From NCBI GenBank assembly GCA_017499595.2, contig CM039006.1, positions 2,914,001 to 2,978,000 on the forward strand: a stretch of DNA of 64,000 bases, written 5' to 3'. This stretch comes from Psilocybe cubensis. Its lineage: Eukaryota. This document shows positions 5,172 through 50,092 of this stretch, piece after piece (the stretch's first letter is position 1; every line of letters starts with the position of its first letter). The notes beneath the pieces were generated by a model. It searched no databases and was not told the DNA's origin. It saw nothing but the letters and a program-made list of their open reading frames with translations. A program made the position numbers and the translations under genes.

Positions 5172-6868
5172 CTAGCTTTGTCTCGGTAGTGATCCTCGGT
5201 ATACCGGTGTGCGGTCAGAGGTGGCGACATCGCGGAGATGGAAGAGAATTCGACTTGCAAATACCGATGACATCGCAATGGAGAATCCAATAGGGGCTTC
5301 AACAAGACCAATCTGTATCAAGGTTTGTCGGGACTCTACATAATGTTGCCAAATGCCGAATACACTCACAGGTGCATGTGCCCACCACGTCATGCAGAAG
5401 ATGTACGTAGCCGATATGCTAATGAAGGTATGTTGAGGTTAGAAGCACATCTGGTGGGCTTAGAGTGGAGGAATGTACGTACATGAGGAAGTAGAAGACA
5501 GAATCCCGAATTAATACCTGCACCAAGCTCTGACTTCGCGCCATAAATGATCCTGTAGCTCGAAACGTCTTGAAGCTGATATACAGCGCCATTGCGCACA
5601 GAAGAATCTCGTATGAAAGCGCTGGAATCCAGAATCTAAAAAACCTATGGTTTGCGGTCCGAGGGACACAGAAGGTCCCTCCAGGAATTTGAACTGCGCT
5701 TGCTACAAATTTAAGTATCAGAAGATATCCTACAGCTGATATAGGATTCTTCAACTTACTTGGAGGGATATCGGTGGCAATAATCCATGCTCCAATGGAC
5801 GAAGTCAATGTGAATAGAACGGCCATCACGGCAAGGACTACTTTGTTCAGTGAATAAAGCGCGTATATTCGCATTTGCAGAATTACTAGAGTAGTATCTT
5901 TCAGCCTTGAAGAGGAATAGGTATTTTCCAGCTTACTTTGGGTTATCATTACACCTAATAAACCACTCCAAAACTCCCATACGTTGAATCTCCTGCCTGC
6001 AAATTCGTCAGGTTTGCGGTTTGTCCTCGAGAAGATCATCCCTACAACTATTTAGAGGTCAATAAAGCGACATTGATATAAGGAAGATAAACAATCTTAC
6101 AACTAGACAATATAATAGAATTCTTGCAAAAATGTCTTTCATGTTACTAGCAAACTCACTTCATCCGATAGGGTCAAAGTAAAAAATCCTGACAATTTTT
6201 ATTAGTGCTTCCTCAGATCTGCCAATTGAGAACACCCCTACCGTACAACCCAAGACTGTGAAAACATTAATCATCATCCAATACAAAAGTTGGAGTCTGG
6301 TGACAACAAACACGTACATGAATGTCGCCAGGGTATAGTATCGATTCTACAACCAGCTAAGTAAGACAATTGCAAGCATATTATCAGAAACGCACCACAA
6401 GATATACAATTTTGGCAAAACTCCATCTCGCTCCCTGTGAACCATCCGTCAAGCCACACACATTAAAATGGACCATCTTTTCCCTACCCAAATCTGATCG
6501 ACCTGTGGCGGTAATACGAAGGTGTGCCTCGTGTTATTGGAATTGCAGAACAATCTCTCTAAATGACTTACCTCCCTATCAAACGTGATCACTGGGTTGA
6601 TAAATAGTAGTCAAATTTAAGATGCTTAGCACCATTGGTCCACTCACAAAATTCGTAAAAGAATATAGAGTTGGCAGCCACTGGACGGTATGAGTTTGAG
6701 ACGACTTGGATTAGAATCTTCCGGTGGCGGGACATAACAAGCAGGAAGAAACGCACGTCGTGTGTACTGCAGGATCTTTATATCCCGCACAAGTTCCACA
6801 ACAAACTCCGTTGATTCTTGATTTATCGTGACTACATCAAATCCTGGAGTCGTTGCAACTGTTAACAT
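5172..6868 (-). CDS. 7TM GPCR-like membrane protein, DUF6533 family, copy 1 (about 15 exons)
   Basis: Spliced by hand: MLTVATTPGF...IKILQYTR / AANSIFFYEF / ITFDRE / VDQIW / GARWSFAKIVYLV / NRYYTLATF / FCRRFNVWE / ILQMRIYALY / GTFC..FWIPALSYEILLC..LIRDSVFYF / PIGFSIAMSSVFASRILFHLR, stop at 5172. Confidence 0.88.
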
Positions 6869-8509
6869 CGTATGGGCGTGAAAGGATTGGGTGGGGTGAG
6901 AAGGCGTAGACCGGGGCGCCACCCTTGTAGTGACACGCTATATATAATACAACGTCCTCGATAATTCGGTTCTCGGAAGCCAAATGAAGCACTCTTACGA
7001 TAAGAAGCCAAATTTTATGTAGGAGTAAGCGATCTGATCGTTGACACATCCACCGTGTCGTAAAAATTGACTCCGGACAAGTCACGAAATTCTAGCACAA
7101 CGAGTTGTGAAGTCACCTTCCTTGAAAAAAGAATGAATCTTTTCGGCCAGCGTTCTTGCGAAAGAAAAGTTGCTCCAAGGATGCTGCCCAAGACTAGTAT
7201 TAGTGCATCAGTCACTTAAGCTCATGCCAATGTTTATGCTATCCCCGATGTCTATTGCCTGGAGGAATCGTAAAATTTAAGGCCCAGCCTTGGTTTAAGC
7301 ATTCCAGATCTTCAAATATCTATGATAGATCCTCAGAATCAAGGCTCAGAGTACTATCCATCTCTGACTCGCAGAACTGCTAGAACACGAGTGATCCACG
7401 CCGATGGAGCCAGTGGAGTAATATATAAAGGGATGCGCCTATGGTTCCCCAAGCATATGGCGTTCCAACAGAAGGTAGCAGGGGCCAACCTACACAATGT
7501 CTTTGGGCATGTCATTACCCTGAGCATTATGTATTAAACCAGGTTGCAAGCTGAATGTACTCAGCCTGTATGGTACTTCAAGCAATTTCACGACGAAGAT
7601 TTGACTATAAATATATCTTCGAGGACAGGAGATGTCGTTCGGTAAACATAGCATGTGAGTTTGTCTGTATCAAAATAGGTAATGTCCAAGCGATGCCAAC
7701 GGCCCAACGCAATCGTCGAGCCACGAAAGAAACTTGGTGGAACAGGCGGAAATAGAAGCTATGCAATGTGTAGCGGATGTTATAACCGAAGTGGTGTCAA
7801 GTCGGACTCAATGGCACCTTGCCGAGGTAGCGCTCATACTGATCGGTTCTCGGTAATTTTATGAAATCCAGTCGTTGGCGCTTGAGCGCTAATTGTTACT
7901 GGAAGTGCTGTCACCTGTGTTCATGGGCCTAGTGAAAGCCTCAAGGCTCTGGCTAATGACATACCATATCATATGAAAACAAATCGGAGTCAAGGTACAT
8001 GCGACAGACTACTTTTTTGAATCCATTGAAGGCGTGATAACTTAGGCCTGTTAGCTATACAATTTGGAGGTTATGACCAAGTTACGACAGGAATGGCTTC
8101 TACGACTTCCAGAATCCGACATAGTCGGATCATCTATTGTGATTTGTATGCGGTGAATTTTATATGGCGTTCGACAGGCCTCTTTAGCTCATGTATAATT
8201 ACATAAAATAAAAAGTAAAATAGAGAATGTTCCACTTGTATTCTAAGTGTAGACGCTTCGGCCAAGCACGCTCCACTTGATTTATTTATTGTTATTACAT
8301 AATACAGTCGGTATCGATTAGGGGTTAAATCACCTCGTTGTGGTTTTCAATGATCCCGAGGAGCCGTTGGTTCGATTCCAGCTACCGACATCTATCTCTT
8401 TTGCAAAAAGAATTTATATTTTAATCCACTAGGGATCATTTTGTTGACCATTACCAATGCATACAGTGCGATAAAATACATTCAAGTTTAACACATACAG
8501 TATACAGTG

Positions 8510-10170
8510 TTACCAGGCGCTATTCGTGCTCCTCCAAATCCGTGGACTGTCAGTATCTTTGAGCGCGGCTGCTCGTAGGTTAATCAGAATACGGTTGGCT
8601 AATACTGATGAAATGGCCGTCGCAAAGGGAATTGGCGCATCCAGGTATATCTGAAATACTAGCATAAATATCCAGCACCCCAAAGAGGTAAGTAAAAAAC
8701 ATAGAGAAGTGCTTACCGATGAATATCTCCACCATACCAAGCACGTTAAATATGTGGCTGCAATACTTCGTATCAATCAAAATTAGCAGTCTGAGCGCAA
8801 TGCTGATGTTGATGAGAACTTACGCAAAGAAGTAGAAAACCGAGTCGCGAATCATGATCGACATGATCGATTGTTTTCGTGTGGGACTTATCATAGAGAT
8901 AGGAGAAAGGCGTTCCCTGATCGCAATGTTAAGTCCCAGACCACATAGTAGAGCCTCAAATAGCAGCGGAGGGATCCAAAATCTGTAAAACTCATGCGGA
9001 GTGTGAAGGTTCGGAGCACAGTATATACCCCCTCCGATATTGACTATGCTCACTGAGACATACGGGGGTTAGTTCATGAATTATTTTGTGATGCACTGGC
9101 AAAGAACACCTACCTCGCGGTACATTCGTAGCCAAAAGCCATATATCCACTGATGCACAGACCAGAAACAGGAAGATCAAAATGCCAAGAAGCCTTCTAT
9201 TTGACATGTACAGCGCGTAAACACGCATTATGAGAATCGCTGCGTAGCGTCAGTAAACAGTTTGACTTGAACGTTGAATAACATTTACTCTGTGTGATCA
9301 TGGGGATCAACCATGTGACTAGCCATTGCCATAAACCAAATTGCTTGCCTATCGTGGGGTTAGAAACTGGCAGGTAATTTGACTGGATCAAGAAACCCAC
9401 AACTGTAACGGTGAAAAGAGCCTTAGGGTTTATCAGTGTCGATGAACATGTACGAAACCTACAACTAAAACGTCTTATCAAGCTCGAAAATCTCGAAAGA
9501 GAGGAGGGATTGCTTACTGATTCGGTGACGTTCGGGACAAACGTCGCTGCAAATAATCAAGAACACATCGAATCATTGGGAATATCCCTCTTACCATATG
9601 CTTCTAATCTATCCGATCAGCAGAAAGACTTTAGCACTACCTAAAAATATGTTGTGCAACCTAATCTCACAATGCGGTAGCTATGATATAATATCGATTC
9701 TGAAATGCAAAGGATTGTGAGCGAGTCAGTGTGGCTGCATTATATTTGAAACATACTGCAAAGAAGATGATCTTAGGGAATGTTAAACCTCCAGGCTTTG
9801 AGTTTACGTTAGAGCGATACATCGTCAAGGAGAAGTGGATATTATACCCAGAAAAGTTCGACCTAGGGGCGCCTGTCAGACAAAGACGGTTTCAATCATG
9901 TCAAATTGTAGTCACCTCCCCATCAAATGTGATTGCTGGATTGTAGGTCAGATTATGACTCCATAGAGGGCGGCTGAAAGGATACCATATTCAAACAAAT
10001 TCAAAGCAACCGGGCCAACTAAACCGTGACGGTGTTAGGGCGTGCCACCATATGCAAATAATTGACCAGTTTCGCCTACTTTTGGTGTAGTGCATAGTAA
10101 GAATGGCCTTCATTACCTCGGCAGGAGGATCAGGGGCATGGCGAGCCAGGTTCAGTGCATTATAGGCCAT
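8510..10170 (-). CDS. 7TM GPCR-like membrane protein, DUF6533 family, copy 2
   Basis: MAYNALNLARHAPDPPAEVMKAILTMHYTK / GPVALNLFEY / ITFDGE / VELFW / PGGLTFPKIIFFA / NRYYIIATAL / FCKQFGLWQ / MRVYALY / GIYC..FWIPPLLFEALLC..MIRDSVFYF / DAPIPFATAISSVLANRILINLR; TATATAA about 75 nt upstream. Confidence 0.87.
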
Positions 10171-19060: not shown

Positions 19061-20703
19061 ATGTCGCTCCCTACAGACGCTCCCCAGCTCTCTGTGGATC
19101 AAATTGCTCACGTTCTGCGTCTTGTGCAGATAACCAAATATGCCAGAGGTATAAGATTACAGAAGATTTACCAAGCACATCGAGCACTGATGGTCTCAAT
19201 ACATTTAGTGGCAACCAGCTCTATTGTCATATACGAGTGGGGTAAGTAAAATCTGTCATATATTCAAAGAAAATACCCATAATTCCTTGTCTAGCAATAA
19301 ATCTGGATCAAGAGGCAAGGCGTAAGGTCACTTGAATTATTTGGAAAGTAAGACTGATCTTCCGAGACTGTAACAGGTGGCGTATTTCTGGGTGATTATT
19401 TTACCTCTATGTTGAATGTCGAACGGACTCACTCATCTTGCTTTTAAAATCTAGAACAAACGACGTAGCTTTGTGAAGACCTTGTTTTTGCTTGTAGGTT
19501 GCTACACGATACTCGATAGGTCGCGTTTTATTCACTTCAGTCCAAGATCCGCTATTATGCTATTGCAGCGGTAATGTATGATTTGATCCTCAAATTTTAG
19601 AATAAACCAAGCTGAACGTCTGTCCAGATTCAACATATTTGGTAAAACTTGTACCTATCGATGCGGCGTTATTTCTCACTTGACATACCAGGTTTCTTCT
19701 ATCCGAAAGTAGACGAAAAAGTATGTCAGAACACATATATCTGGGTACCGCTAAAACTACTTTGCAGTTGTCGGTAATCATGCTACTGATGATACCAAAC
19801 ATTCTAACCTCTTTTTGATAGCTGTACGTATGCTTTCCTGTGCCCTGTTTCAACATGACCATTAAATCTCTGACTAATTAGAATATTATAAAGGTATTGG
19901 ACTTATGTACTGGCAAGGAGTAACCGGAATCTTCGAGTTTGTTCTCACAGAAGGTGGGTCAAATTGGTCATCCTCATTCATAACTAACGCAATGTCTATC
20001 GCCTCAGCCATTTTGCAAGTTCGAGTCTATGCTTTATTTGCAAAGAGTCGTAGACTCTTGCGATATATGGTTCCTTTGTCAGTATTGTGTGCCGCGGCAT
20101 CTGCTGTCATAATATTCAAAGATGTGATCCAGGAAATAAGAGGTAACATTCCTTTGATCCATTGTTTGCTAATGATGGCTCATCATCATTACATTAGACA
20201 AAGCAGTTAAAGCGATATCCATTCCAGGAGGGACATTTTGCTCTGTATTAAAGGTTCCTACCTTCCTATATAGTATATGGATACCTCCGTTGGTATTTGA
20301 ATGCTTCCTGTGCGTCCTGGCAACCAGGAGAGCATATCAAAACTTTGAGCCCCAAGCGTCATTTCATAAAACCGGTGTTCGCATTGTTCATGTCTTATTG
20401 AGAGACTCGTTGTTCTATTTCTTTGCGTAAGTTTCTCTGACATACGGAAAGATAATTACCTGTATTAATCAACTGTAGAATTGGGATCACCTATCTAGCA
20501 TGTATAGGAATGATTTCAATGGATCCCGTGAGTTTATCATAATTTTGCCCTAGCCGCGGTGGTTTACTCTTCCGTAGGAACTATTTGACGTCCCACTGGG
20601 GCTGTTGTTCGCAATATCCACCACACTGTGCAGTCGTATAGTCCTCAACGTTTACAGCGCCCTTCCGGATCAGCAGCTTGATAGGAGTCTGCAGTACCAA
20701 TAA
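19061..20703 (+). CDS. 7TM GPCR-like membrane protein, DUF6533 family, copy 3
   Basis: MSLPTDAPQL...LVQITKYAR / VATSSIVIYEW / INLDQE (GC donor) / VAYFW / NKRRSFVKTLFLL / IRYYAIAAV / FCIGLMYWQ / ILQVRVYALF / GTFC..WIPPLVFECFLC..LLRDSLFYF / FDVPLGLLFAISTTLCSRIVLNV, TAA at 20701-20703. Confidence 0.88.
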
Positions 20704-21602
20704 ACCAGCACAACTTCTATATGCGTAGAACTTGAGAACATAGGGTTACATGGATGACAAATTTGTTCAGACAGGTGAATTGCGTCGAGTGGTAGATGTT
20801 GAACCTTGCGCAAGACCACAGATTACTATTCAATATTAAATATTCAATCGTAATTCTCGGACATCCCAATTTGGTTTGCCCATGTCTTTTGTTGCGTTCT
20901 ACCTCTTGCCCATTTCGCAGGTTCGACACTCTCGCCTCTAAAGTAAAAATCAAACAGGGTATCTCCCTTTTCCTAACTCTCCTAAAACCTTCGGCGGGCC
21001 CATTACCTTGAGGAGAGTGTGGGACATGTTCTCAAGACCGTGTCAGGCACCACAATTATCGATGCTTTTGAACGAGAAATTTTTTGAACTGATGGCATGG
21101 AATGATCTTCTTCACGATTTGACTACCATCTCCTCATAGCTTTGCGTTACTAGGGAGATCGAGATGATTCATCTTTGAAGCGCCACAAAGTGATGCTTCG
21201 AATGCGGATGTAACATGTGATGGACATCGTTCTTGATTTTCTATGATGCAGCTCTTCGCATATGTGATGATGGCAGAAAATATTGTGGTAAACAAATTAC
21301 CTTTAATACGTTGATAATATTTCTAGTAAGATTGGGTACCTCAATCTCTCCAAGAGTCCAGTAAGGATGTGGTGGCAGCTACATGCATTATTTCAAGTTC
21401 ATTTCTTTACACACTTTTGCACATGCAGGAAATGGGCAAGACTATGATCAAAATTGTTTGGTGATGTCGCCATTCCCAACAGGGGGACAAGGATTGATGG
21501 CTGCTGATCAGTGGCCTGTAATTATAAAGGATGTGATACTCGTACTACTGACAGACCATAGCTTTATATCCCACTCTGCTTTTACAGATACTGTGTTCAA
21601 GA

Positions 21603-23309
21603 ATGCCGACCATTATGACCATCATGGATACCTCCAGTGTTCTCGAGCAAACCAAAGTTCACGCCATATACATTGCACAGGTCACTAGATACGCTAGGCG
21701 TATGCGGATCCAGTTTCCGTTCTTACTCTCCATTTCGCTCATATACTTGTTTGGTCGCAGTGTCATCTACCTGTATCATTATTTATGATTACTGTGAGTT
21801 AGCCAACGTTTACGAGTAACCATTACTGCAATGGTCTTACCCTTTTATAGTGTTAACCATTGATATAGAGGTACATATCAGTAGTTTCTATGTTTGCGTG
21901 CATTTCAGCTGAGTGTCTGTTGTGCTGACAATGTCAATCTAGCTATCCTTTTTACGGGTAAGCAACATTTCAGTTCGGATCGGGGATGTTGATATTTTCT
22001 AATACTGTAGCGTATCAAAGAAAAATCGATGGAGCTTTGCAAAGGCCCTTTTTCTCTTTGTAAGCACCTCTTTGTTATCCTAGATGCGATGCTTATAGTT
22101 GGACTAGAATCGTTACTACTTCATTGCAGCATGCATGTGTGTCGGAATATCGGCGTACAAGTGACACATTTATAATTAGGTTTCTCTAGATTCACCGTTT
22201 TTGGTAACGCCCTCAAACGTAGCTGGTTATGCTGGCTTTCATTGACCTACCACTCGGTTAGCTTTTTTTTATCCCCATGTAAACGATCAGGTTTGTCCCC
22301 GCACGCTTCAATTCTTTGCAGAGCATTACTCGACCTTCCATGCAGTTGTATGTTATTGTGTCATTATTCTGCGTCCGCAAAACTTCCTGACAATGTACTA
22401 TTATCATACGTAGCTGTGAGTAGTACTCACCTACCTACTTGCCATACACTTGATCTGAGACTTGGTGTTTCCTTATCACAGGCACAGTCTTAATGGAATG
22501 GCAAAGTTGGACAGGAATAATTGGCATTGTTACTACACAAGGTTTGCTAGGCAACTTCTATCATTCATTTAGAGCTGAATAGTTGTCATCACTCCAGCAA
22601 TTCTCCAGCTTCGACTGTATGCGCTGTTTTCACAAAGTCGCAAGCTGTTGATATACATGGTGCCGATATGGATACTGCCCTTGGTGGCGTCTACGGCTGT
22701 GATTTCCAAAGCTCTGGATCAGGTACAAACACGTAAGTTTATACAAATATTTCGAATTTACCCTTGATATCAATTTGGATGTACAGAGGGGAAGATCCAG
22801 GCAGTTGCAATTCCCTACGATTTTTTTTGTTCTATTCTTGACATCCCAACATACCTATACGGGTTCTGGGTCCCCGCCTTTGCTTTTGAATGCGTCCTAT
22901 GTGTTCTGTCAATTATTCAAGGAATTAAAAATTGTCGCTCAACTCAGGCAAGCTTTTTCTCAACCGAAGTGAGGCTAGCCAATGTACTGGTTCACGACTC
23001 CATTGTTTATTTTCTAGCGTATGTTTCCATATATATGCCAATTTTTATGAAGCTCACACCTGTCTACAAAAGGATCGGACTCACATATCTAGCGTGCATG
23101 GTTGTGTTACTACTCAATATTGTGAGTCGCATTGCAAAACATTTCATGCCTAAAAACTGAGGACATTCAAGGAAGTGTTTGATGTACCCCTGGGGTTTTC
23201 GGTTGCCTTTTCCTCTACCTTGTGCAATCGAATGGTATTGAATGTACATCGACTTGCCTCCGATAATCTCAGCTGGAGAAGTTCTAGAGTTTGCCCCTTG
23301 TCGATGTAA
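21603..23309 (+). CDS. 7TM GPCR-like membrane protein, DUF6533 family, copy 4 (15 exons)
   Basis: MPTIMTIMDT...AQVTRYAR / SSTCIIIYDY / LTIDIE / LSFLR / KNRWSFAKALFLF / NRYYFIAAC / FCTVLMEWQ / ILQLRLYALF / DFFC..FWVPAFAFECVLC..LVHDSIVYF / FDVPLGFSVAFSSTLCNRMVLNV; which of the nearby Met codons is the true start is uncertain. Confidence 0.88.
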
Positions 23310-23947
23310 CCTTAATTACTTGATTGATAGTCTGGGATGAAATTAACACTATATTTATTATCACTGGTCGGCTGATACGGATGTGTTCCTTTGGATACTG
23401 GGTTAGATATACGTCGAGTTAATTTAACATTAACCTTCACCTAAACGTTGAATATAAAGTACCATTCGTGCCTTCACTGGTATCTATAAGGATCGCACTT
23501 CTGACATGATGGCTCCTCAGCGATGCGATTCGTACATTCATGATTCGGAGTAATGACAGGAACCTCTGGTATCTCAGATACTGACAGGGAAAACGGGTCT
23601 AGTCTATCTCCTCACTATGTGACTTCTTCGGCTCGTTTGATGGTATCCCAGTTATCCGTCAAATTTTAGGGCGGTTGAATGCTACATGGTCCTCAGCATC
23701 CGGATAGAGAAAGAAAATTAGTCCTGTTAATTGATGAGGTGGGGAGCAAATGAGGCGCCAGGGAACGCATAGTTCTACTTAATTGCCATCGCCATAACAA
23801 ACAGTAAGCCAATTTTACAAAGGGTTGCATCTAGAAGTTCAATATTAAGGTGAGTAATGTAGAGGCTTGAGACTGTGTCTATTCTTCTCACCCCCGCCAA
23901 CTCACCCACAGTGCTACATAGATATTCCAGCACAGTGATAGCCAGTT

Positions 23948-25641
23948 ATGACTACTGAGCCGCTTGTACTTCCTCCAGAGTTAATGGATAAGCTAGTCCT
24001 TGGCTTAACCATTGTAGATTTGGTGAGATATACAAGACGTTAGCTGCATAACTCACCTGGAATTGTCTGTTTTGTTAACATTTCAACTAGTTCCATCTAT
24101 CTGCATTCTTATATACGACTACCGTACGCTATGTTTCCTCGTTTATGTATAGATCTATAACGACGACTCAATAGTTATCACTTTTGACGAGGAGGTAAGG
24201 AAATCTCCTTCATATTCAGAGATATCTGACCAAATGGGTAATCAGCTATCATTTCTATGGGTAAATAATGGTTTATCCGACTAGCTCAGTTCATGTTTAC
24301 TCTATCCCCCATGGCTTAGAATAGACGCATCACTCTCGTCAAGGTTTTGTTCTTTTTTGCAAGTTTAATTACCAATCAAGTCAACAACAGTAAATATTGA
24401 GCAGCTAACCAAATGCCACCAGAATCGGTACTACTTTCTTGGCGCTGCCTTGTAAGTCACTGTTTGTATTTTATCTGCAACTATGTATACTCAGTGTGGG
24501 CCTGAATTAGCTTTCAGATTTACGGTAAATTGTCTTGGGATACTGCGATACAAATCCAGTTGTATATTCACCAAATTTTCAGTCTTCTTCTCTCCGAATG
24601 TTGATACCAATGTGAGTCAAGCCATTGATACTCAGAAGGATTCAAAAGTTCTCACAAATCTCTCAGTTGTGAGGCTACCCGTTAGATCCTTTTAGTTGCA
24701 TTGTATGCTAATATCAGGAATACCCCACTGACATTCAGCTGTAAGTACCTACACGGGCATGATGACTTGGGAATATCCCACCAAAGGTTCCATAGGTATA
24801 AAAGCTTCTGACTGGCAAAATTGGTCGGGTGTATTGGGAACATTTCTTGCACAAGGTATGTTCCATTTTCTTGTAAATTAAATAGATTTCTTAGAAGTTT
24901 TATACCAATTTATTAGCCATCTTACTTGTTCGACTCTACGCGCTCTATTCAATGAGCCGAAAGCTCATTCTATATATGCTACCTGTGGGCATAATATCAA
25001 TCCTTGCCTCTATATACGTGATGCAGAGTTCATTTGAACTTCTAGACTCCAGTGAGTTTCCATTTCTTTTGGAAGAATTGATTTATAATTTTAGCTTTTT
25101 TGCATTAAAGGAAATGATATTTTTGCCATTGCTCTACCAGGAGGAAACACTTGCTTTGGACGGAATGTACCCTCATACGTATATGTATTTTGGATACCTT
25201 TGCTTGGGTATGACTGTCTCCTATGTGGATTGGCCATTTGGAGGGGCGTTGTGCATTATAAAATTCGTTTGATGGGAGGTACTCAAACGAAGCGATTGAT
25301 TGATATTCTTGTTCAAGACTCTGTCCTATATTTTGCCATGTGAGTTACAAATTGCGCCTAAGGTTTAAAACCAGCTCAAATAATCTCTGACGCAACCGAA
25401 ACATAGAATCGGACTCACATACCTAGTTTGCATGATTGTTTGGATTATAAACCTGGTAAGGCTTTGATGATGATTAGTTAGTGTATAAGTTGATGGGACA
25501 GATGTACAGAATTACTTCAACGTTCCGTTGGGGTTTTCGGCTGCACTTTCGTCTACTCTATGCAACCGTATGATCCTGAAGGTTTATGGCATGTGCGCGA
25601 GTCAGGTCAAGGAAAATAAAGTGAAAAAAGGACAGGCATAG
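23948..25641 (+). CDS. 7TM GPCR-like membrane protein, DUF6533 family, copy 5
   Basis: MTTEPLVLPPELMDKLVLGLTIVDLVRYTR / PSICILIYDY / ITFDEE / LSFLW / NRYYFLGAA / FCIKASDWQ / ILLVRLYALY / GNTC..FWIPLLGYDCLLC..LVQDSVLYF / FNVPLGFSAALSSTLCNRMILKV, TAG ending at 25641. Confidence 0.87.
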
Positions 25642-25889
25642 TCAATGAGTATGGGTACGGCAGTGAAAATCTGCATTGTATGGAACCTGGTTGTTTTGCG
25701 ATGGACATTTTTGAACTTTAATTTTTCTTCTTATCCAAAAGAATGTAGTCTATATTTTGAATGGACCCATACTACATAGTATATAGTTATGTCTTGTGTA
25801 TGTAGCTTGGGAAATTTATGAGAAAGCCAGTACAAGCTGTGGACACGGCGGCGACAAAGGGTTCCGCCACATACAAAACAAGCACAAAC

Positions 25890-32454: not shown

Positions 32455-34159
32455 ATGAGCTATACTTCAGCATCCGTGATTTCACCGCTCTTACAGGAAC
32501 TCTTTCACGGCCTCTTCATCATCGATTTTGCAAAATGCACCCAGCGTACGTGCATCACCCACATCCTCATTAAGCCTATACAGGGTGATCTCTAACGGAG
32601 AATTTTTCAATCTAGTTTCTGCTCTTATGATCGTCCTTTATGACTACGGTAGGCAGCAGCTGAGCCACCCTTTCTATGCTTCCAGTTTGTTGATATGACA
32701 ATTGAAAGCGATTACGTTCGAGCAAGAGGTGAGCACCTTACAGCGCATGACCTTCTTGTAGACCGTTTTATTTACCTGTAACAATATGACAGATGTCGTA
32801 TCTCTGGGTGAGTTTTATGTATACCCCTGAAGCAACCCAACACTCATTACTTGATCATATTCTTCTACATAAGAAAACTCGATTCAATTTCGTGAAGGTT
32901 TTATTCCTCCTGGTATGTCACACCACCCACTGGAGTTCGTCCGACCAGGACTTATCAAGCAAATAGAACCGGTACTACATCCTCATATCAGCAATGTCAG
33001 TCGCATTCTATTCCTATCCTTTGCAAGGGTACTGAATTTGACATAGCTACGCCATTCATAGTAATTTTATATTGCAACATGTTCTCTAGCATACTCTGAT
33101 TACTCGGTTGCAGTACTGTTCTTTTCTGATGTGGACAACAAGGTGCGGAAAATCTTGCAAGACTATCAATATATTGTAGCTCAACTTTTCATTAGTTGTA
33201 CGTCAATTAAAATTTAATTATCACAGAGTTATAATATGTCTACTGAACGCTGCCCAACTCTCCACACTCAGCTGTAAGTGTCGAATCATGCGTAGATCAC
33301 TTTGACGTGACTAATAATTTGAAGGCGTTCACTACATGCTGTGGCAAATCTGGTCAATTATTGTAACATCGACCCTAACACAAGGTGCGTTGCACACTTT
33401 TACCACCTGCCCATGGTGCCTTATTTTCGCGTTTCAGCCATCTTGCAGGCTCGACTATACGGACTGTATTCGAAGAATAAAAAGATACTCGCCATCATGA
33501 TACCTCTTTATGTGTTGTCAATCATCGCAGCAGTAGTGCTTGTGGTTAAATCAACTGGAGAAGTAACTGCTGGTAGGCAACAATTTGATCCAGACATTAT
33601 ATCTCCACCTCTAAATCAACCTCCCTTGCCTTACAGCTCACGAGATCATTGCTTTCCCAATAAACAGGGGGCATTACTGCATTGTAACCAGCATCCCTCG
33701 CTTTTCGCTTGCATATTGGATACCTGGATTTGCCTTCGAATTGCTACTGTGTGCGTTGGCTATCAAGAAAGCATTTGGCCATTTCAAACTCTACGGGTCG
33801 TATTACACCACAGGGGTCAGGATTGTCGATGTTCTTGTTGGAGATTCAATTGTATATTTCCTGGTGTGAGCATTTGAATCTATAAAATAACTGTGATGTG
33901 AACTAACCACCTTCTGATCAAGTATTGCAATGGTTTATGTATCCTGCATTGCAATTTGGATTGCGGACTTGGTGAGCTCTGTTTTCGGATGGGAAATTTG
34001 ATGATGTACTCATATCCCACGCAGGAACGAATTGATACTCCACTAGGCTTTGAGCTAACCATCTCATCTACGCTGTGCAGCCGGATGGTATTCAACATGC
34101 ACGGCGCGCTTGACAAGCGAGATATTAACCAAACAATTGATTCGGATGAGACCGATTAG
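32455..34159 (+). CDS. 7TM GPCR-like membrane protein, DUF6533 family, copy 6
   Basis: MSYTSASVISPLLQELFHGLFIIDFAKCTQ / SALMIVLYDY / ITFEQE / MSYLW / KTRFNFVKVLFLL / NRYYILISA / FCVHYMLWQ / ILQARLYGLY / GHYC..YWIPGFAFELLLC..LVGDSIVYF / ERIDTPLGFELTISSTLCSRMVFNM. Confidence 0.88.
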
Positions 34160-34340
34160 GTTACGTGGGAAGGCATAGAAGTCACTGATGCATTTTCTGT
34201 GAATGTGAGGGATTATCCAAAAGGTCATATTTATTGAAAGTCTACTATACATTACAAGTCCAATGAAATTTAAGATATGTTCTCCGATACCGTCCATGGC
34301 GTAAAATAGGAGCATCATGTAACTGGGCTTGGGCGTGATA

Positions 34341-36042
34341 TTACGTCTGACTCGTCTTTAACTCACTCAGCACCTCTGTCTCGTCGAGTGCTCCGTAAAG
34401 CTTGAAGATAATGCGACTACATAGTGTGGTTGATATGCTTAGCTCGAACGCAAGTGGAGCGTTGATTCGTTGCTGATATTTGTGTTGTTATTGCGGACTA
34501 AAGAGAGTTTTGACACGGACATACCACTTCAGCCACCCATACGGCTACGCAGGCCACATACACTAAGGTGATCCTGTGTCACATGAGTTGGTCTTTAGTA
34601 CTACATGAAATATTTAGAGAACACTTACACAAGGAAGTATAGAAGCGAGTCCCCGACAAGAATATCAACAAGTCTCATTCCTGTGGAGAAGTACGAGCCG
34701 TCATATCCCTTGAAGTGGGAAAAACCCTTTGCTATTGCCAGAGCGCACAGGCAAAACTCAAATGCCAAGCTGGGTATCCAATATACGTAGGTAACTCGTG
34801 TTGCATTTAAAATTCCGCAGAAGCGATTTCCAGGAATTGCAATTGCCCCAATTCCGTGATCTTTTTGCGCAATATAAATGCCATCAGATTGTTTAGACAT
34901 GAGGATGCAATGCTTACCGGCCAGCTCTTTAGAAGTTGCTACTGCAATGATTGCACTAGAGGCAGCGAGAGATAAGAAATGGAAGGTCAGGGTAAATGCC
35001 AGGAGTTTCTTGCTGTTTCCGTAGAGGGCATATAATCGGACCTGAAGAATCCCTATATGTATAATGTAGTACACACATCGAAGGCCGGATGTCAGAAAGC
35101 AAGGTTTGGTAAGGTTTATACATGTACATACCTTGAGTAATGATAGCCAAGACTATCCAGGAGACTATCTGCCAAATTATATACCTTTGGCCTGTATAAA
35201 TGTCAGAAAATGTATTCAATGATCAAGAGGAAGTCCTACTAACAGCTATTTACGAATGGTAGGCCAGGATTGTCTAGTGAGATCGTTTTTGTGAATGGAC
35301 ATAATTGAAATATGTACAACTGTAAGAAAAAATGAGTTTAATACGATTCGCCGTCACCTACAATGATTATTTGATACTCACAGTGTCATCAGGATTTTGA
35401 ACAAATAACCCTGTATTTGTAACATATGTTAGAGTGCCATTTAAATGAACACAATCATACCAGTTTACCGTATACAGCAATGCTGGGGGTAGTGCTTTAA
35501 TTATCGGGGTATTCACCAACCGAATGGATTGCATACCTTGATGCAGCAACAAAATAATAACGATTCTAAAAGTTAACGAGTCAACGTGGCATTATTACTA
35601 TAGATATAATTATAACATACCACAAAAAATAGTAGCTTGGTAAAACTAAAACGTTTTGTCTAGGATCAGGGATGAGCAAAATATGCCCGTGCCTATAATC
35701 ACAGACCTACCCACAAAAAGGTAATCTGGTGCATTCAGAAAGGATAAGTGTGAAAAATGAAGCGAAGAAAAATTCTGAGTCTAACCTCTTGGTCAAGAGT
35801 AAGCACTACATTGAAGGGTTAATCAAAATGCTTAACTTCTGTGGAATTGAGAGCTTACGGTAATCATACAAGATAACTGAAGTGGCAGATACTAGTAATA
35901 TAACAAACATGTTGGTGAGGCAAACATTTTAAAGCAATATAGCAATACCTTCAGCGTATTTAAAAAATTGGATGAGCTGAAGTCCATTAATCAGCTCATT
36001 AATAAGACCTGATAGGGGAGAAGTTGTAGTAGGGGTAATCAT
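34341..36042 (-). CDS. 7TM GPCR-like membrane protein, DUF6533 family, copy 7
   Basis: MITPTTTSPLSGLINELINGLQLIQFFKYAE / SATSVILYDY / LTLDQE / ITFLW / NRYYFVAAS / FCQRYIIWQ / ILQVRLYALY / NRFC..YWIPSLAFEFCLC..LVGDSLLYF / RINAPLAFELSISTTLCSRIIFKL, TAA at 34341. Confidence 0.88.
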
Positions 36043-37438
36043 GGTAGAGAAGCTCACTTTCCATTCCTTTGAAAGTGCAAAGTCGTTCTTATATGAGACC
36101 TTGCTATATTTTTGGTCAAACAGCTTACCACGAATTACCAATGCTTGAGTTCCACTCCACAACAAATTGCCGAGCCACAGATAATGAACGGCCGAGGTAG
36201 TGGCATATCCTGTGTGCAGTAAAAACATGGTGATCCATGGTTGTAGTCTCAGAATACTATTGCATTGACATTCGGGAGAACTCAAGGACTCAAACGTTTG
36301 ACACCTTGTATTTCAGGAGCACGGTTGTACGTGTCTCCCTTACATTGATCAACATATTCTCCTTGTTACATTCCAATTTTAGAATGTCCCGACACCCTTC
36401 CCGATACTATTCTTCCACAGCTATTCTAAATCTCTGTCGGGAGAAGATCCAAAAGGTACTCGATCTGCTGTCGTGTCTTGATGCCATTCTTACTGTCAAG
36501 GTGCAAAACTAAGGTAAACAGATTGAGGGATGGCAGAATCAGGAGGTCACCCGTACCGATACTATTGTACATGTATAGGGGACTATTGGATTATGCCAAC
36601 CACACAGCATATTGTATGGAGAGGAGAGCAACTTCTACCAAAACAGTGGTATAAAGGGGTGTGTATAGTTTAAGATTGTTGGAACTGCATGAAACTCGAT
36701 CGATAATGACAATCGTGAGTTAGAGGCTCCCCTTGATATATGTCCCGCATAACGTGAGATACCTGTCAGCCCTTATCTAACCAATCCAGAGCGTAATAGT
36801 GTACAGAGGATATCCACGACGGTAAAATTGGAGCAGAAATAGTACATGATACGAGGGAATCAAACAGAGCGGCTATCTATCCGAACTGGGGTGGAAAAAC
36901 AAGTTATTCTATGTTCAAATAGGCCTTGTACAAAGTGAATACAGCTGGAGCATCTCAGGACTCCATGAGTACAGCTAGGAAAGTTCGCTATTGCTAGACA
37001 ATACTGAAATTATGAAAACAAAGCATTACTGGAGTACACTGGTTTGGTGAATGATAAGTGCTTGAGTATTGAGGTCACTCGTAATTTCATTATATTTCAG
37101 GCTTCTGGGGCATATCAACACTGAAACGTATGTTTCTTCACTGTCCTCACCACTATATTAGTTCTGTTCTGTGCTTACATCACCGGTGTTTCTTAAAATC
37201 ACTAGAGTAGACGACATTTAGACTCCGAAGTGGCAGGGATCAAGGAGCGTTTCATTCTATCATTTTACGTCTAAATTTAACCCATATCTAGCCTTAGGAA
37301 AAATAGGTTAAGCATACAATCCCCGTATGCCTATGAGATTTGGTGATTGGATGGGTAAACCGAGCATTCCTTCGATTCTCATCATGATTACCTCCCCCAC
37401 CTCTGGAAGTAATCTTCTTTATGACAATTTTGATCGTT

Positions 37439-39146
37439 TCATTTGCCCAGATCACTGTGCGTTTCTGTCTTATTGAGAGCGCCATATAGCTTGAATATCA
37501 TTCGACTACACAGAGTGGAGGATATGCAGAGTTCAAATGCCAGTGGGGCATTGATTCTCTCCTGCGAACTCGGATATCAGAACTGGTCAGAATATTTGTT
37601 GAACAGGGGCCTCACCACGTCCAGTATCCACACCGCAACACAGGCGACATAAACCATGGCAATTCTAATCGAACAGTCTGTGAGCGTAGCCAACTTTGAC
37701 AATAAAAATTGTGAACGTAGCTTACACCACAAAATACAGGATCGAGTCTCCAACGAGAACATCTACAAGCCGCACGCCTGTAGAGAAGTGGGCCCCGTAA
37801 GCCTTGAAGTGCACGTATCCCTTTGCAATTGCAAGCGTGCACAAGAAGAACTCGAAGGCAAAGCTGGGTATCCAGAAAGCGAATGCTATGCGGGGCGGGG
37901 CAAGAATCCCGCAGAATTCTCCTCTTCCTGGGATGGCAATGGCCTCAATAGAATTAGCTTCAGAGATAGTGTCAGCCTTGTGGCAAATCATATTGCATAC
38001 AAAACGTGGTATGCTCACTCTTTCTCTCTTCTGCCGTAGCCTTCAACACTGTGACGGCGGATACGATTAAGGAAAGTACGTGGAATGTCACCGTACAGAC
38101 TAGCAGTCGTTTGCTTTTCCCATAGAGCGCGTACAATCTAATTTGAAGAATAGCTGTTGTTTTTGACTGTGAAAAAGCGTTGAAGGAATTTAAACAAAAA
38201 ATGATTGGTTACCTTGAGTCACAATAGCAAGGACTACCCCCGTCCAGATTTGCCAGACCACAAATTGTGAGCCTGTCAGAGATTCATGTAAGCCAGATTG
38301 CAGCAGAATCGAAATATACTCACAGCTACATATATGCGAAAGACGCAGCGTAAATCACTCCTTGAACGATGCATTAGTGTAAAAATCACGCACAACTATC
38401 AGTAGTAAATATATATCAATCATCCGATTATACACTACAATTTTGTGCTTACCTTCTGACTGGGGTCAGCCAAGTATAGGCCTGAAAAATCGACATTAGA
38501 CATATAACTTCGCTGAGAGTTAATATTTCACCATATAGAGACACCCTAAATGGCCATCATTAGAGTTTTAAACAAAGTGTATGTGCATTGTCTAGCACAC
38601 ACCCAGCGGCTGTAACAAAATAATAGCGATTCTACTCCTGTAGAGTCAGCATGGACGTACCACGGCTGGATTCAGTTATGCGTACCAAAAAAAATAACAC
38701 CTTTACAAAACTGAAACGTTTGTTCTTTACAATGTTTAGTTTTGAGCCGTCTAGGATACATTTATTGGGAAAGATGTACCCAGAAATAGGCTTTCTGTTT
38801 TGTCAATGTTTAGAACAAGCATTACAGAAGAGGAGAATGAGTTATGTGCCTCTTCATCAAGGGTTATCACTAAAGTAATGGTTGATTGACGTAGAAACCT
38901 GGAATCAACGGCTGCTTACAATAATCATACAGAATGATTGTGAATGCCGATACTAAATAAATTGTGATACTGAGACTTGCAATTTGTATAAAATGAGGAC
39001 AATGAAGACGCACACTCTGCAAATTTGAAGAACTGTATGAGCTCAAGTCCCTGAGTCAATTCATTGATGATTTGAGGAAACGACGGGGTATTCATTTCAG
39101 TGTCAAGGGACAGCATGGAGGGAATATCCTCATATATTTCAGCCAT
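37439..39146 (-). CDS. 7TM GPCR-like membrane protein, DUF6533 family, copy 8
   Basis: MAEIYEDIPS...GLELIQFFKFAE / SAFTIILYDY / ITLDEE (GC donor) / KAYFW / NKRFSFVKVLFFL / NRYYFVTAA / FCSQFVVWQ / ILQIRLYALY / GEFC..FWIPSFAFEFFLC..LVGDSILYF / ERINAPLAFELCISSTLCSRMIFKL. Confidence 0.88.
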
Positions 39147-40631
39147 GTTCTATTCTTAACGTTCATATCAAGGCACGTAAAGTAGGAGTACCACGATTGC
39201 TTCAAAATTGATTAATTTTACGCATTTTGTGTTCGAGGCCGAACAATCAAGGAATGTGGTAAGCTTTTGCATGCAGAGCGCAGCACCGTGGACACAATAA
39301 CAACATGCCGACAAAGGTTCAGAGCAGATATCATCTCACTTAATCAGCTTCCTGTCTCTTTCTGCATTTTATCTGTGATATTTCTTCATGTACTCAGCAA
39401 ATTTAGAAACAAATTCTCGGATTTGACTCAATAATTCTCACATTTGATGGGGAGTTGTCGGTTGGACAAATTTAGGACTTGATCCCAGCCAACACAAGCA
39501 GTAAAGATGAGTTGGATTCAAATGTACGGTCTTCTCACTGGTAAGCGGCAACAACTTTTCTTTTTCCATGTTGACTTGATGATCATTAAAAATTATGAAA
39601 CATGAGAAGATCTTAATCCTGAGGAACAAGTATGCCCAGACTGAGATACGTCCGTTCAGTTGTATTGGCTTCTTAGTTTTTACTAGTAAATCCTGAGGGA
39701 ACGGCTGACACAGTGGCCTTTGGCATATACATGTGTTTATCCGTGCTAGATCCTTTTTTGCTGCCTTGAACTCGATTCTAAGGAGAGTTCTGGCGGAGAG
39801 CAAAATCAGAGCTTTGTACTAGCGATCCGAGTCCAAAATGCACGTAATCTAGGGAGCTCGTGCCCAACCATTTCTGACTTAGCTATTTGTGGCTTCGTCG
39901 ATCGTAACACCGTGCGAAATTGACAGCCCGTGCGAACATATCACCAAGAACTGCCGACGTTTGCGATGCGGCAAGATTATACTAGACCAGGTAAGGTGCT
40001 GGCATATCAAATTAATCGTTCTAGTTGTTCAGATCTATCAATAACTTTTAAACTGTACTTGTGATTAGACCAGTCAGTCACAAGACAATATTGAAAGATA
40101 TACCTGTCAGATGTCTCATTGGCCAGGTTATTTTTATCATGTTCATATAAGTGTTCTGTTAACAATTAAATATATCATAAGTGCTAGAAGACGCTTCAGC
40201 TGTACAACACCTAGCCTTTTAAGTATTTAGAACGTATAGTGACATATAAGATACAGTTCCTGCTGCATATTTGATGCCCTTGAAGCTAATGCGAGATAAC
40301 AATATGGTGACATGGTATTGTCACATTTTTAAATGTGGTGTCCGAACTGCTCTTGTCTGCAATAACTTGCCGGTATGGGAGTAAAATGCTTGACTCCGAG
40401 TCATAAAATGAGCATTGCTTACACCAATAGATAAGTAGGAACAACTTATCGTCACAAGGTATGCTTCTCTATTATATGTGACTCCGACCATCCCTGTAGC
40501 AGAACCGAACAAGACCTTTATCATTGATATATCTGCATTTATCTTGTACAGCCTTGGTTTTCTTCTCGGGCTGACGTACATTCTCACCTTTTCAGAAGTA
40601 TAATATCCTTGCCAAATGTAGACAAGACACA

Positions 40632-44904: not shown

Positions 44905-46612
44905 CTACTCTTTCAATGTCCACATTGAACCTGAATAACCCTGGTAAAGGCGGATCTCGGCTTTCGTTTCTTGATGGCGCCCCATGGACATTCAATAGGA
45001 GTCTGTTGCAAAGTGTCGACGAGAGAGCCACCGAAAAGCCCATTGGTGCGTCGAACCGCTCCTGTAACTTGAATTAGGCGAATTTTGGTTGCAGTGTTAT
45101 GACTATGCGTACACTATCAACTTTCCACACCGCTATGCAGGCAATGTAAACTGCACCGATTCTGTACATCTTAATCAATATTCTGCGTTACGTGGTGGGA
45201 TGAAGGCCGAAAACGTACGCCACGAAATAAAGAACGGAGTCTCGGACCAGGACATCTACGAGTCGGGTCCCCGGTGACCGGCGGTGGTGAATTTCAAAGT
45301 TTCTATAGCCCCTGAAGACGGCCAATGTGCATAGCAGCCACTCAAAGCACAGGGTTGGGATCCAAAATGTGTATAGGTAGCCCGGTATCTTCTCAATGAC
45401 GCAAAACATCCCACCAGGTATGACCGTGGCTCTAATTGTGCCCCCTGTGACGGTGTATGTGAACGAGGCTCCTCGGTCAGCTTGATGAAAATTCCATACC
45501 TCTTCGTTCTTGTACAATGGCGTTTGTCATGATTGAAACACACCCCACGATAGTGAGGAGGTAGAGGGGTACAATACACGCCAGAAATCTTCTACTCTTT
45601 GAGAAAAGGACGTACAATCGGACCTGCAAGATGGCTAGTTTAACCCAGCCGGGTGGAGTCAGAGAGTCGTACATTTTTGTATCAGTGCTGCATGTCGGCT
45701 TGAGATACCTTGTGAAATAATGATTCCAATAACTCCAGACCAGGCTTGCCATTCCATTAGTCGAATACCTTGTCTTCTGTTAGCCGAACTCATCAAGGAA
45801 GCGATTCCAAGTCACTGCTTACAGCTTTGAAAACAGTGCAAATCATCGCTTAAACTGAGCGTTCTTTACGTGAAATCTTGGAGAACGTACAACTGTATTA
45901 TCGTTGGGCATCAGAAAATCCTTCGCATGCAGGAACAGGAAATAAAATGTTTACCTGATCGTTTATGTTGGAAGTGAAGTATGCTAGATAGATGATTCGA
46001 AAGGTTGGCATAGCATGGAAATGACGTTTGATTGTACTCGCCGTATGCTGAGAATCTACGCCCGTCATATTTAATCCAGCTGATAAAACAGGATAAACGA
46101 AACGACATACACGGACGCTACCAGAAAATAGTATCGACTCTGATACACTGGAGTTAGTTTGCGTCGCAACCCGACGTTGAATACGCACGAGGAAGAACAA
46201 CCCTTTCACGGGTGTAAAATGCATGCGCTAAATTATCACGAGGTTCAAATACAATATTCATGTGCAAGACGGTGAAGATATACCCAAAGAAATGATATCT
46301 GATATTCGAGTCAAGATATTCAGTATGGTTATGTGTTGTCCGCTCAGCCATGTTTACCTCCTGATCAAAAGTCAAAACTAAGAAGAGATGAGCGTACAAT
46401 CCATGAATTCTACTTCAGAGGGTCTCATACTATAATCATACAGAATAATGCAAACAGCCGATACTGTAAAGTACAAACATAAGCAGTGTGTTGTGAGGGA
46501 GCCCATGTCACATACGCCTGGCATAACGGGTTATCTGTATGATTCCAATCTCGTGTATTGTCTTCGTCATGATATCATTGGGGAACGATGAAGGGATCAA
46601 TGTCGTGTTCAT
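44905..46612 (-). CDS. 7TM GPCR-like membrane protein, DUF6533 family, copy 9
   Basis: MNTTLIPSSFPNDIMTKTIHEIGIIQITRYAR / SAVCIILYDY / LTFDQE / ISFLW / SRYYFLVASV / FCIRLMEWQ / ILQVRLYVLF / GMFC..FWIPTLCFEWLLC..LVRDSVLYF / RFDAPMGFSVALSSTLCNRLLLNV, TAG at 44905. Confidence 0.88.
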
Positions 46613-48287: not shown

Positions 48288-48294
48288 TATATAA
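48288..48294 (+). promoter_or_regulatory. Putative TATA box of receptor copy 10
   Basis: TATATAA about 60 nt upstream of the ATG at 48353. Confidence 0.4.
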
Positions 48295-48352
48295 GGGTCC
48301 AGGGATATGAACCATCCCATTGCAGTGGATTGGAAAGTTTGTCTCCTATACG

Positions 48353-50092
48353 ATGGATGTAACATTCCCCATACCTCCATCTCTTCAGCAGGGCTTTGAA
48401 GAATTAATTAGTGCATGGAAGATAGTTCAGCTGACAAAGTACACCAGATGTAGGTCAGACCTTCCAAAATCAATATTAATCAAGTTCTCACTAGTTTATT
48501 TGTGATCCCAATAGTATCTGCGGTATGCATTCTTTTCTACGACTATGGTAGGGCTTACACATTTTAGTCCCTTAACACACCTGACCGAGTGCCATACATA
48601 ATAAGCCATCACATTTGACCAGGAGGTAAGTTCTCCTGAAAAAATAATCTGCAATACATTGATTGAGACCTCAGATATCCTTTCTGTGGGTAAGCAAAAG
48701 TTGCGAATCATGAATCACCGTCTGCGAGTTCTGATAATGACAATTTTTTCCATAGAGCAGAAATTTTAAGTTTGTCAAGCTTCTCTTTCTCCTGGTAAGG
48801 TCATAAGGAGGCCAACAGGATTGAACCAGATGACTGACCTCAAACAGAACCGATACTATTTCACTGGAGTGGCTCCGTATGTGTCAATGTATTATAATCT
48901 ATCCTATTATGTCAGGCTTACTCTCTGGAAGGTTTACAATTTATGGTATAGGCTATTATTATGCTGATAACTCTCGCTAACACTTTTTTCCTCCTCGAAG
49001 CATATTTTTCTGGAAATATAAATTACAATGTACGTTTGACCCACACGTCAATTGGCTGATATAATAATTTTTCTTAGTTGTAGGCCTTTACTTTGCCCTC
49101 TAAATTATTCATGCGTGTGAATGATAGGCCATGACGTTCGTTAATCTCCAGCTGTAAGCAAAGTTGTTCTTCTTTGTGTAGCTGTGTTTTCTGATAGTCA
49201 TACCTGCGCAGGTGTGCATTTTATTAGCTGGGAATTGTGGACTGGTATTATTGGGATTGTAGTTCCTCAAGGTCAGTCCTTGGACATGCCTTGACGTACT
49301 ATTAGAATCCATGGAAGTGTGGAAAATAGTACTGATCTATGTTTCAGCCATTCTGCAGGTACGGATATATGCACTATATTCACAACGGAAGCAACTATTG
49401 GCATACTTGGTTCCCCTCTGCATGATAACCGGTACTGCTTCGGCCACAATCATAAACATAGCCTTCAACCAGGCAAAGACAGGTGAGTTTTATGTCTAAC
49501 GTTACTGTCATTGAAGTGACACATCTAAATTGAAGATGGCGCTATCAATGCACTTCCGACTCCTGGAGGAATGTTTTGTGTCATTGAGCACGTCCCATCC
49601 TATCTATACACCTTTTGGATCCCGATTCTGTCATTTGAGTGCCTGTTGTGCATTTTGGCGCTGATTCAGGGCGTGGAAAACTATAAAGCATATGGAGATC
49701 AATATAACTTGTGCATGCGATTTCATGGAATACTGGTCCGTGACTCTGTGGCATACTTTCTTGCGTGAGCTACCTTTTCACCTGCCTCCCGAAATCCTAA
49801 CCGTTACGTTTACGCTATAAATTATAGGATTGGTGGAACATACTTAGCATGCATGCTAGTTTGGAAACTTTCCCCAGTAAGATTTCTTTTCTTTGGGCAG
49901 GACATTACGGGCCAATGCTGATGTATGCTTCAGAATCGCTTTGACGCTCCTATGGGATTTACTGTGTCTGTGTCTACCACATTATGCAATCGCTTATTGC
50001 TCAGATTGAATGATATGGCATCAACCTCTGTGGATGGCACAGACATAACCACTATGTATACCAGCACCACAGCTAACTCCGACCTTGAATAA
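48353..50092 (+). CDS. 7TM GPCR-like membrane protein, DUF6533 family, copy 10
   Basis: MDVTFPIPPSLQQGFEELISAWKIVQLTKYTR / SAVCILFYDY / ITFDQE / ISFLW / SRNFKFVKLLFLL / NRYYFTGVA / FCVHFISWE / ILQVRIYALY / GMFC..FWIPILSFECLLC..LVRDSVAYF / RFDAPMGFTVSVSTTLCNRLLLRL, TAA ending at 50092. Confidence 0.88.

Follow-up and report, generated by a model that had tools for sequence, protein, structure and literature searches.

Tandem two-nucleotide exons in a Psilocybe cubensis array of DUF6533 genes, with RNA support in one copy and the same layout in other fungi

Paired two-nucleotide exons in a paralog array

The window analysed here is a stretch of 64,000 nucleotides (nt) from Psilocybe cubensis (assembly GCA_017499595.2, contig CM039006.1, positions 2,914,001 to 2,978,000 of the forward strand), and it holds an array of paralogous genes of the DUF6533 family in which two consecutive exons of only 2 nt each very probably contribute to a Phe-Cys dipeptide. 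The DNA is fungal and rich in introns, with a G+C content of about 42-47%. An earlier note, made by a model from the letters alone, had described ten paralogs with such pairs. All ten copies were confirmed, and tblastn with the largest exon of one gene as query brought the total to 12, the additional members being copy 11 and copy 12 (large exon 57812-58030). The pairs of copies 1-10 are listed below by window position; introns a, b and c lie before, between and after the two dinucleotides, and exon 3 is the exon that follows the pair.

6101..6102, minus strand: copy 1, first 2-nt exon, TT (ag-TT-gt); introns a 57 nt, b 53 nt
6046..6047, minus strand: copy 1, second 2-nt exon, TT (ag-TT-gt); intron c 49 nt, exon 3 starts at 5996
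9463..9464, minus strand: copy 2, first 2-nt exon, TT; introns a 53 nt, b 60 nt
9401..9402, minus strand: copy 2, second 2-nt exon, TT; intron c 52 nt, exon 3 from 9348
19768..19769, plus strand: copy 3, first 2-nt exon, TT; introns a 47 nt, b 52 nt
19822..19823, plus strand: copy 3, second 2-nt exon, CT; intron c 70 nt, exon 3 from 19894
22346..22347, plus strand: copy 4, first 2-nt exon, TT; RNA-supported (X1 joint 22290->22482)
22414..22415, plus strand: copy 4, second 2-nt exon, CT; RNA-supported (X1 joint 22290->22482)
24667..24668, plus strand: copy 5, first 2-nt exon, TT; introns a 55 nt, b 70 nt
24739..24740, plus strand: copy 5, second 2-nt exon, CT; intron c 55 nt, exon 3 from 24796
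33196..33197, plus strand: copy 6, first 2-nt exon, TT; AG/GT flanks; skipped by the public model P0004
33272..33273, plus strand: copy 6, second 2-nt exon, CT; AG/GT flanks; P0004 has 33228-33275 as one exon
35318..35319, minus strand: copy 7, first 2-nt exon, TT; AG/GT flanks; the public model P0037 reads 35319-35242 through
35244..35245, minus strand: copy 7, second 2-nt exon, CT; AG/GT flanks
38394..38395, minus strand: copy 8, first 2-nt exon, TT; introns a 57 nt, b 68 nt
38324..38325, minus strand: copy 8, second 2-nt exon, CT; intron c 51 nt, exon 3 from 38272
45891..45892, minus strand: copy 9, first 2-nt exon, TT; introns a 62 nt, b 66 nt
45823..45824, minus strand: copy 9, second 2-nt exon, CT; intron c 54 nt, exon 3 from 45768
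49078..49079, plus strand: copy 10, first 2-nt exon, TT; introns a 48 nt, b 72 nt
49152..49153, plus strand: copy 10, second 2-nt exon, CT; intron c 58 nt, exon 3 from 49212

Read in gene orientation, the dinucleotide is preceded by AG and followed by GT at all 20 positions. The first dinucleotide is TT in every one of the ten copies, the second is CT in eight and TT in copies 1 and 2, and the exon after the pair begins with G(C/T) behind an AG in 10/10 copies. The exon preceding the pair measures 29 nt and ends in phase 0, again in all ten. Intron a spans 47-62 nt over the ten copies, intron b 52-74 nt and intron c 49-70 nt, and all of them are GT..AG; each of the 20 dinucleotides thus has the form of an internal exon of no more than 3 nt between canonical GT..AG introns (47-74 nt). 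In this arrangement three short GT-AG introns, of phases 0, 2 and 1, fall within four coding bases. Once joined, TT+YT+GY reads Phe-Cys, which is followed after five residues by Trp-Gln or Trp-Glu in 10/10 copies.

The paired pattern AGTTGTN{44,74}AGYTGT was matched 11 times in the window, against 0.67 matches expected, and none of 100 shuffles reached 11, which excludes chance. The homologous sites account for ten of these matches, and the eleventh (22581) is spurious. The AGTTGT hexamer alone is not enriched, with 40 occurrences observed and 42 expected in the window. The cores of the introns showed a mean pairwise identity between paralogs of 0.52, compared with 0.50-0.52 for shuffled partners. 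The surrounding introns are indeed unalignable, as had been claimed, and since their cores are no more alike than shuffled ones, the dinucleotides and their splice signals were kept while the surroundings drifted. A scan of introns a-c for the branch-site motif YTRAY was uninformative, many introns having no match.

RNA from copy 4 carries the four bases

Two small sequencing runs from the same organism, X1 and X2, were compared with a DNA run, X3 (one of the DNA-like runs X3-X5), over 19500-39400, a region that comprises copies 3-8. None of the runs listed is on record as RNA, and X1 and X2 were assigned to RNA by guess and by their spliced joints: because their contigs carry GT..AG joints that X3 lacks, we conclude that X1 and X2 come from spliced RNA. 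The X1 joints listed are GT..AG, except for 21870->22020, which is drawn GT..AA. X3 shows none of them, and it shows no difference from the window at the micro-exon sites in the covered region.

An X1 contig crosses copy 4 with a joint 22290->22482, which skips 191 bases with GT..AG ends and carries exactly TTCT between the two exons at a depth of 18. When all splits of TTCT with AG..GT/GC flanks inside 22291-22481 were enumerated, the sole solution was TT at 22346-47 together with CT at 22414-15. The junction in the contig is the one that had been predicted for copy 4 from the sequence. Four further exons of this gene are delimited as follows.

22262..22290, plus strand: copy 4, 29-nt exon before the pair; phase 0 end; X1 contig exon end at 22290; AG/GT flanks
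22482..22541, plus strand: copy 4, 60-nt exon after the pair; its GC start completes the Cys codon; X1 joints 22290->22482 and 22539->22596 (cut +2)
21943..21957, plus strand: copy 4, 15-nt micro-exon; 14 letters of the exon lie within X1 joint 21870->22020; AG/GT flanks
22190..22203, plus strand: copy 4, 14-nt micro-exon; X1 loose ends 22136, 22190 and 22261 spell the exon between its neighbours; AG/GT flanks

With the X1 junctions, 15 exons of copy 4 join into a single open frame of 297 codons, with Phe-Cys as residues 93-94; the junction between exons 1 and 2 in this model was inferred and has no RNA support. The single frame is open only with the four bases included: if both dinucleotides are omitted a stop follows at codon 95, and if one is omitted, at codon 175. 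The proposal that the two dinucleotides are real exons giving an in-frame Phe-Cys holds for 10/10 copies by sequence and for copy 4 by RNA.

Further exons of copy 4 measure 20, 29, 29, 33 and 39 nt, and the N-terminal half of the gene consists entirely of very small exons. By eye, the other copies look similar in this respect.

The same layout in other fungi

When metagenome contigs were scanned with an alignment of database homologs, 80 loci were obtained. Eight of them are intron-free and transcript-like; seven of these (the motif-bearing contigs among L001-L007) encode x-Phe-Cys and one, L023, encodes Leu-Cys, each in one piece. A 2+2 pair was found upstream of 62 of the 79 exon-4 anchors in these loci, compared with 1 in control downstream regions and 2 in the reverse complement, and one of the 62, in L004, is false, this contig being intron-free. 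In all, 48 distinct genes of environmental fungal DNA are marked by these pairs.

Over the 48 genes the encoded dipeptide is Phe-Cys in 24, Leu-Cys in 9, Ile-Cys in 6, Ser-Cys in 4, Thr-Cys in 3, Tyr-Cys in 1 and Asn-Cys in 1. The first dinucleotide is TT in 27, AT in 6, CT in 6 and another in 9, some of the rare ones being possibly mis-assigned, and the second is CT in 22, TT in 17 and AT in 9. Where an anchor has no pair, it belongs to the intron-free contigs, to the sites cut at the 5' side (L009, L010, L026, L029, L065 and a second anchor in L061), to L039 (which an earlier regular expression did match), to L071 or to the exceptions L011 and L035/L038 described below.

L001 and L008, two of these loci, represent one and the same gene and are 100% identical in their exons. 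The bases TTTT at 849-852 of L001 stand exactly at the position of ag-TT-gt..ag-TT-gt in L008. This is a second, independent confirmation of the spliced pair, in another species. No further match of complementary DNA (cDNA) to genomic DNA was found among the 80 loci besides L001/L008.

Variants and ancestry of the three introns

Some members of the family have the corresponding bases with fewer introns. One of these lies in the window.

57432..57435, plus strand: copy 12, single 4-nt exon AGCT at the pair's site, encoding Ser-Cys; intron b absent

Intron a of copy 12 is 52 nt and intron c 60 nt long, exon 3 starts at 57496, and the predicted reading frame is open only if the 4-nt AGCT is included. 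Here the middle intron b seems to have been lost cleanly. Among the environmental loci, L035/L038 have a lone 2-nt exon TT followed by ag-CTGC, without intron c (L035, about 1620-1690), and in L011 the six bases are fused to the next exon (about 1081-1090), without introns b and c. The simplest reading of L011, L035/L038 and copy 12 is that three old introns were occasionally lost cleanly. To judge from its presence in 10 of the 12 window paralogs and in 48 distinct environmental genes, the 2+2 layout appears to be old, and the three intron positions may be ancestral to this DUF6533 subfamily.

The protein family and the place of the Phe-Cys

A protein search with a single exon as query returned no match, whereas a profile of 12 large exons matched Agaricomycete proteins, many of them annotated DUF6533. 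The Pfam family PF20151 (DUF6533) scored 58.0 bits with P0004, 57.1 with P0037, 64.6 with P0020 and 62.6 with P0003, against a gathering cut-off of 24.1. P0004 and P0037 are exact translations of exons of copy 6 and copy 7, and P0020 and P0003 are homologs; the scan thus covered copies 6 and 7 through P0004 and P0037, and the other copies were judged by eye. The hydropathy profile of the copy 4 product has about seven segments.

A structural model of P0020, of low confidence (mean predicted local distance difference test score, pLDDT, 60; predicted template-modelling score, pTM, 0.53), comprises seven long helices, with a hairpin placed between the fourth and the fifth. When this model was searched with Foldseek against pdb, the top matches listed were all G-protein-coupled receptors (GPCRs), among them endothelin B and neurotensin 1, with an E value of about 2e-4 and a TM score of about 0.5. 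These GPCR matches are weak. The label 'receptor' is plausible for the family, and reasonable but unproven. SNB1 of Coprinopsis cinerea belongs to the DUF6533 proteins and is predicted to have seven helices (PMC10949477), and DUF6533 proteins are described as structural relatives of the Ustilago maydis peptide GPCR Gpe1, whose signalling was assayed with a yeast reporter (2026 paper, PMC13652807). The window genes resemble SNB1 and the Gpe1-linked DUF6533 proteins in that they share PF20151 and a predicted seven-helix architecture and belong to the same basidiomycete-specific, expanded family. In their available parts, PMC10949477 and PMC13652807 make no mention of gene structure or micro-exons.

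In the P0020 model the residues corresponding to Phe-Cys are 82-83, at the start of a helix that spans 80-112, and the hairpin (146-161) holds Cys158, which is near-invariant in the homolog alignment. The micro-exons are thus predicted to encode a hydrophobic residue and a Cys just before the third helix. By analogy with the disulfide between helix 3 and loop 2 of GPCRs, this Cys may have been kept by pairing with the near-invariant Cys of the helix 4-5 hairpin. A dipeptide x-Cys stands at this spot in 14 of the 22 database homologs that carry the downstream motif.

Public gene models lack the pair

The database contains four proteins that translate window exons exactly, and the pair is present in none of them, so that no public model of the four is correct. 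This supports the view of the earlier note that gene predictors miss such exons. P0001 (copy 1, 158 amino acids) and P0035 (copy 8, 92 amino acids) are C-terminal fragments that start downstream of the pair. P0004 (copy 6), named in the database as a hypothetical protein of Psilocybe cubensis, has an exon 33228-33275 that consists of part of intron b plus CT, and the helix-2 exons are skipped. In P0037 (copy 7) intron b is retained as coding sequence (35242-35319) and yields a 24-residue insert; this intron is 72 nt long and open in frame, and the model therefore reads through it. An insert of 24-26 residues like that of P0037 occurs in no relative's transcript. Many of the other matches of the profile search are fragments of 80-250 amino acids.

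The pair explains the fragmentary annotation and false inserts in a large basidiomycete family of seven-transmembrane (7TM) proteins that is linked to a proven peptide receptor. It also provides a rule for repairing the models, namely ag-NN-gt, ag-NT-gt and ag-GY ahead of the Trp-Gln exon.

Splicing of the pair and alternative explanations

We conclude that the pairs are very probably genuine 2-nt exons and that splicing includes them in the main form of the transcript that was recovered. Both the RNA of copy 4 and the transcript of a relative (L001) contain the four bases. Recognition of short introns as units, or intron definition, is typical of fungi with introns of about 50-70 nt. If each of the short introns a, b and c is recognised as its own unit, their positions would be expected to persist. 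At each 2-nt exon the 5' splice site lies two bases from the preceding 3' splice site, and the two are not likely to be bound together, so that the three introns would leave one after another, in sequence.

Several points weigh against this conclusion or narrow its reach. RNA support was obtained for one of the six copies examined; copies 3, 5, 6, 7 and 8 have no X1 or X2 cover, which says nothing on their expression, and copies 1, 2, 9, 10 and 12 lie outside the region of the RNA comparison. The RNA label of X1 is a guess, its RNA nature being read from the spliced joints, and contigs show the dominant form, from which minor skipped or retained forms could escape. L008 keeps all three introns and two more, that is, five consecutive introns around exons of 30, 43, 2 and 2 nt, and incomplete splicing of this stretch thus occurs in at least one relative. 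Outside these introns, positions 1-1276 of L008 are contiguous with 600-1588 of L001, for 177 nt on the upstream side and 736 nt on the downstream side, at places that are interrupted by introns in L024 and L027. L008 probably represents a transcript whose splicing is incomplete, a hint that this stretch is processed last or slowly; alternatively, it could be DNA from a gene in which the other introns had been lost. Not all homologs have the Cys, as Val-Ser occupies its place in 2 of 10 aligned ones. The low confidence of the P0020 model (mean pLDDT 60) counts here as well, and it is we who infer the order of splicing, the disulfide and the 'constitutive' character of inclusion.

The order of removal could also be nested by necessity. 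Intron b would then leave first, and the resulting 4-nt exon would be handled as a single micro-exon, just as copy 12 has a 4-nt exon at the same place. Given the footprint of U1, neighbouring splice sites 2 nt apart can hardly both be occupied, which speaks for such an order. However, in L035/L038 a lone 2-nt TT joins a normal exon, so that no 4-nt stage is needed, each intron has a complete GT..AG, and splicing intermediates were not seen. We regard a forced nested order as possible but somewhat unlikely. A further possibility is that the pattern arose by chance or through faulty assembly and that the genes reach frame in another way. It would agree with the public models P0004 (copy 6) and P0037 (copy 7), which do so without the pair; it finds no other support. 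It is contradicted by the 11 paired matches where 0.67 were expected, by TTCT in the X1 RNA contig, by relatives' transcripts that carry Phe-Cys and no insert of the P0037 kind, and by the agreement of the DNA run X3, from the same organism, at these sites in the covered region, and we hold it to be extremely improbable.

The earlier note had further suggested that the pair acts as an on/off gate, in which controlled inclusion or intron removal switches between a productive messenger RNA (mRNA) and a frameshifted or intron-retaining one that is degraded. Part of this stands, since skipping does shift the frame and in copy 4 brings a stop at codon 95 if both exons are left out or at codon 175 if one is; the switch itself is without support. 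The five consecutive introns kept in L008, whose exons equal the spliced L001, would fit slow or incomplete splicing, but the same locus could be DNA of a gene without its other introns. The skipped form was not seen: the sole X1 joint leaving 22290 carries TTCT, and nothing marks the pair as a regulated cassette, the copy 4 contig of X1 holding only the included form and X2 giving no cover. No conserved intronic element that might serve a regulator is visible, and copy 12, L035/L038 and L011 manage without intron b or c. Moreover, the layout is common to 48 distinct genes and ten paralogs with unrelated intron sequences; being family-wide and ancient, it is not a device of these paralogs. A regulated gate thus appears highly improbable. 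A related idea is that of a kinetic bottleneck kept across the DUF6533 subfamily, in which a fixed order of removal leaves this stretch to be finished last and a pool of retained-intron transcripts, like L008, is completed on demand. We consider this improbable; if it were true, the rate at which each receptor can be made would be set by how quickly the 2-nt exons are spliced.

Stepwise removal of introns is known in other forms. In recursive splicing and in twin introns, adjoining intron segments are removed stepwise and the next splice site stands beside the new junction; in a stwintron, the inner intron interrupts a splice signal of the outer intron, which is formed only after the inner one is removed. 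At a recursive site, a zero-length exon, AG stands immediately before GT and no base is left in the mRNA. The window genes are unlike both. At every site AG and GT are separated by two bases, which would stay in the mRNA at each step, as they do in copy 4 RNA, and each intron has complete signals, with an uninterrupted GT and AG of its own.

Relation to known micro-exons

Exons of 2 nt are already known from Coprinopsis cinerea, and the window family is a further, well-documented case with an unusually clear evolutionary series. In C. cinerea, long reads revealed 57 two-nucleotide exons spread over 50 genes, along with 13 exons of a single nucleotide and 27 of 3 nt (PMC12230235); as the 2-nt exons outnumber their genes, some genes must carry two. 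The two cases are alike in that they come from the same fungal class and involve internal exons of no more than 3 nt whose omission creates a stop (PMC12230235). The C. cinerea account names cytochrome P450 genes as enriched and, in the parts available, does not speak of DUF6533, of tandem pairs or of conservation across species (PMC12230235). In P450 genes of Phanerochaete chrysosporium, many introns of 45-55 nt and very small exons have been described, the shortest being 6 bp (PMC1184071). Like the window genes, these are Agaricomycete genes with many short introns and very small exons, with a minimum of 6 bp as against 2 nt here.

In plants, conserved exons down to 1 nt, usually missed by annotation, were found with MEPmodeler and verified by RNA, and a peptidase M1 gene has adjacent micro-exons of 5 and 12 nt that are fused or split depending on the lineage (PMC8831610, PMC11096116, PMC12409088). 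The plant case differs in the gene families concerned, in its sizes (5 + 12 and not 2 + 2) and, as far as these sources go in part, in having no three introns within four bases. The literature search found no consecutive micro-exons from a fungus, no tandem 2+2 pair, no three introns within four bases and no gene structure of DUF6533 genes; the supplements of PMC12230235 may list such genes.

The family offers an RNA-backed example near the lower limit of exon size, and a doubled one, with three spliceosomal introns inside four bases in dozens of genes. It lends itself naturally to testing how the spliceosome deals with spatially overlapping splice sites, and the variants without intron b or c are its built-in controls.

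Other features of the window

The remaining paralog, copy 11, shows the large exon without its usual context.

52310..52531, plus strand: copy 11, homolog of the large exon standing alone; family exons not recognisable upstream on the same strand

Copy 11 is probably a gene fragment. Spliced contigs of both X1 and X2 were also found over two other genes that lie between the paralogs, at 25932-26890 and 30650-31310, with joints 26026->26075, 26205->26267 and 30909->30963. Finally, a contig of the DNA run X3 skips 83 bases at 37144-37228, with ends CC..CG, probably owing to an indel between strains close to the 3' side of copy 8.

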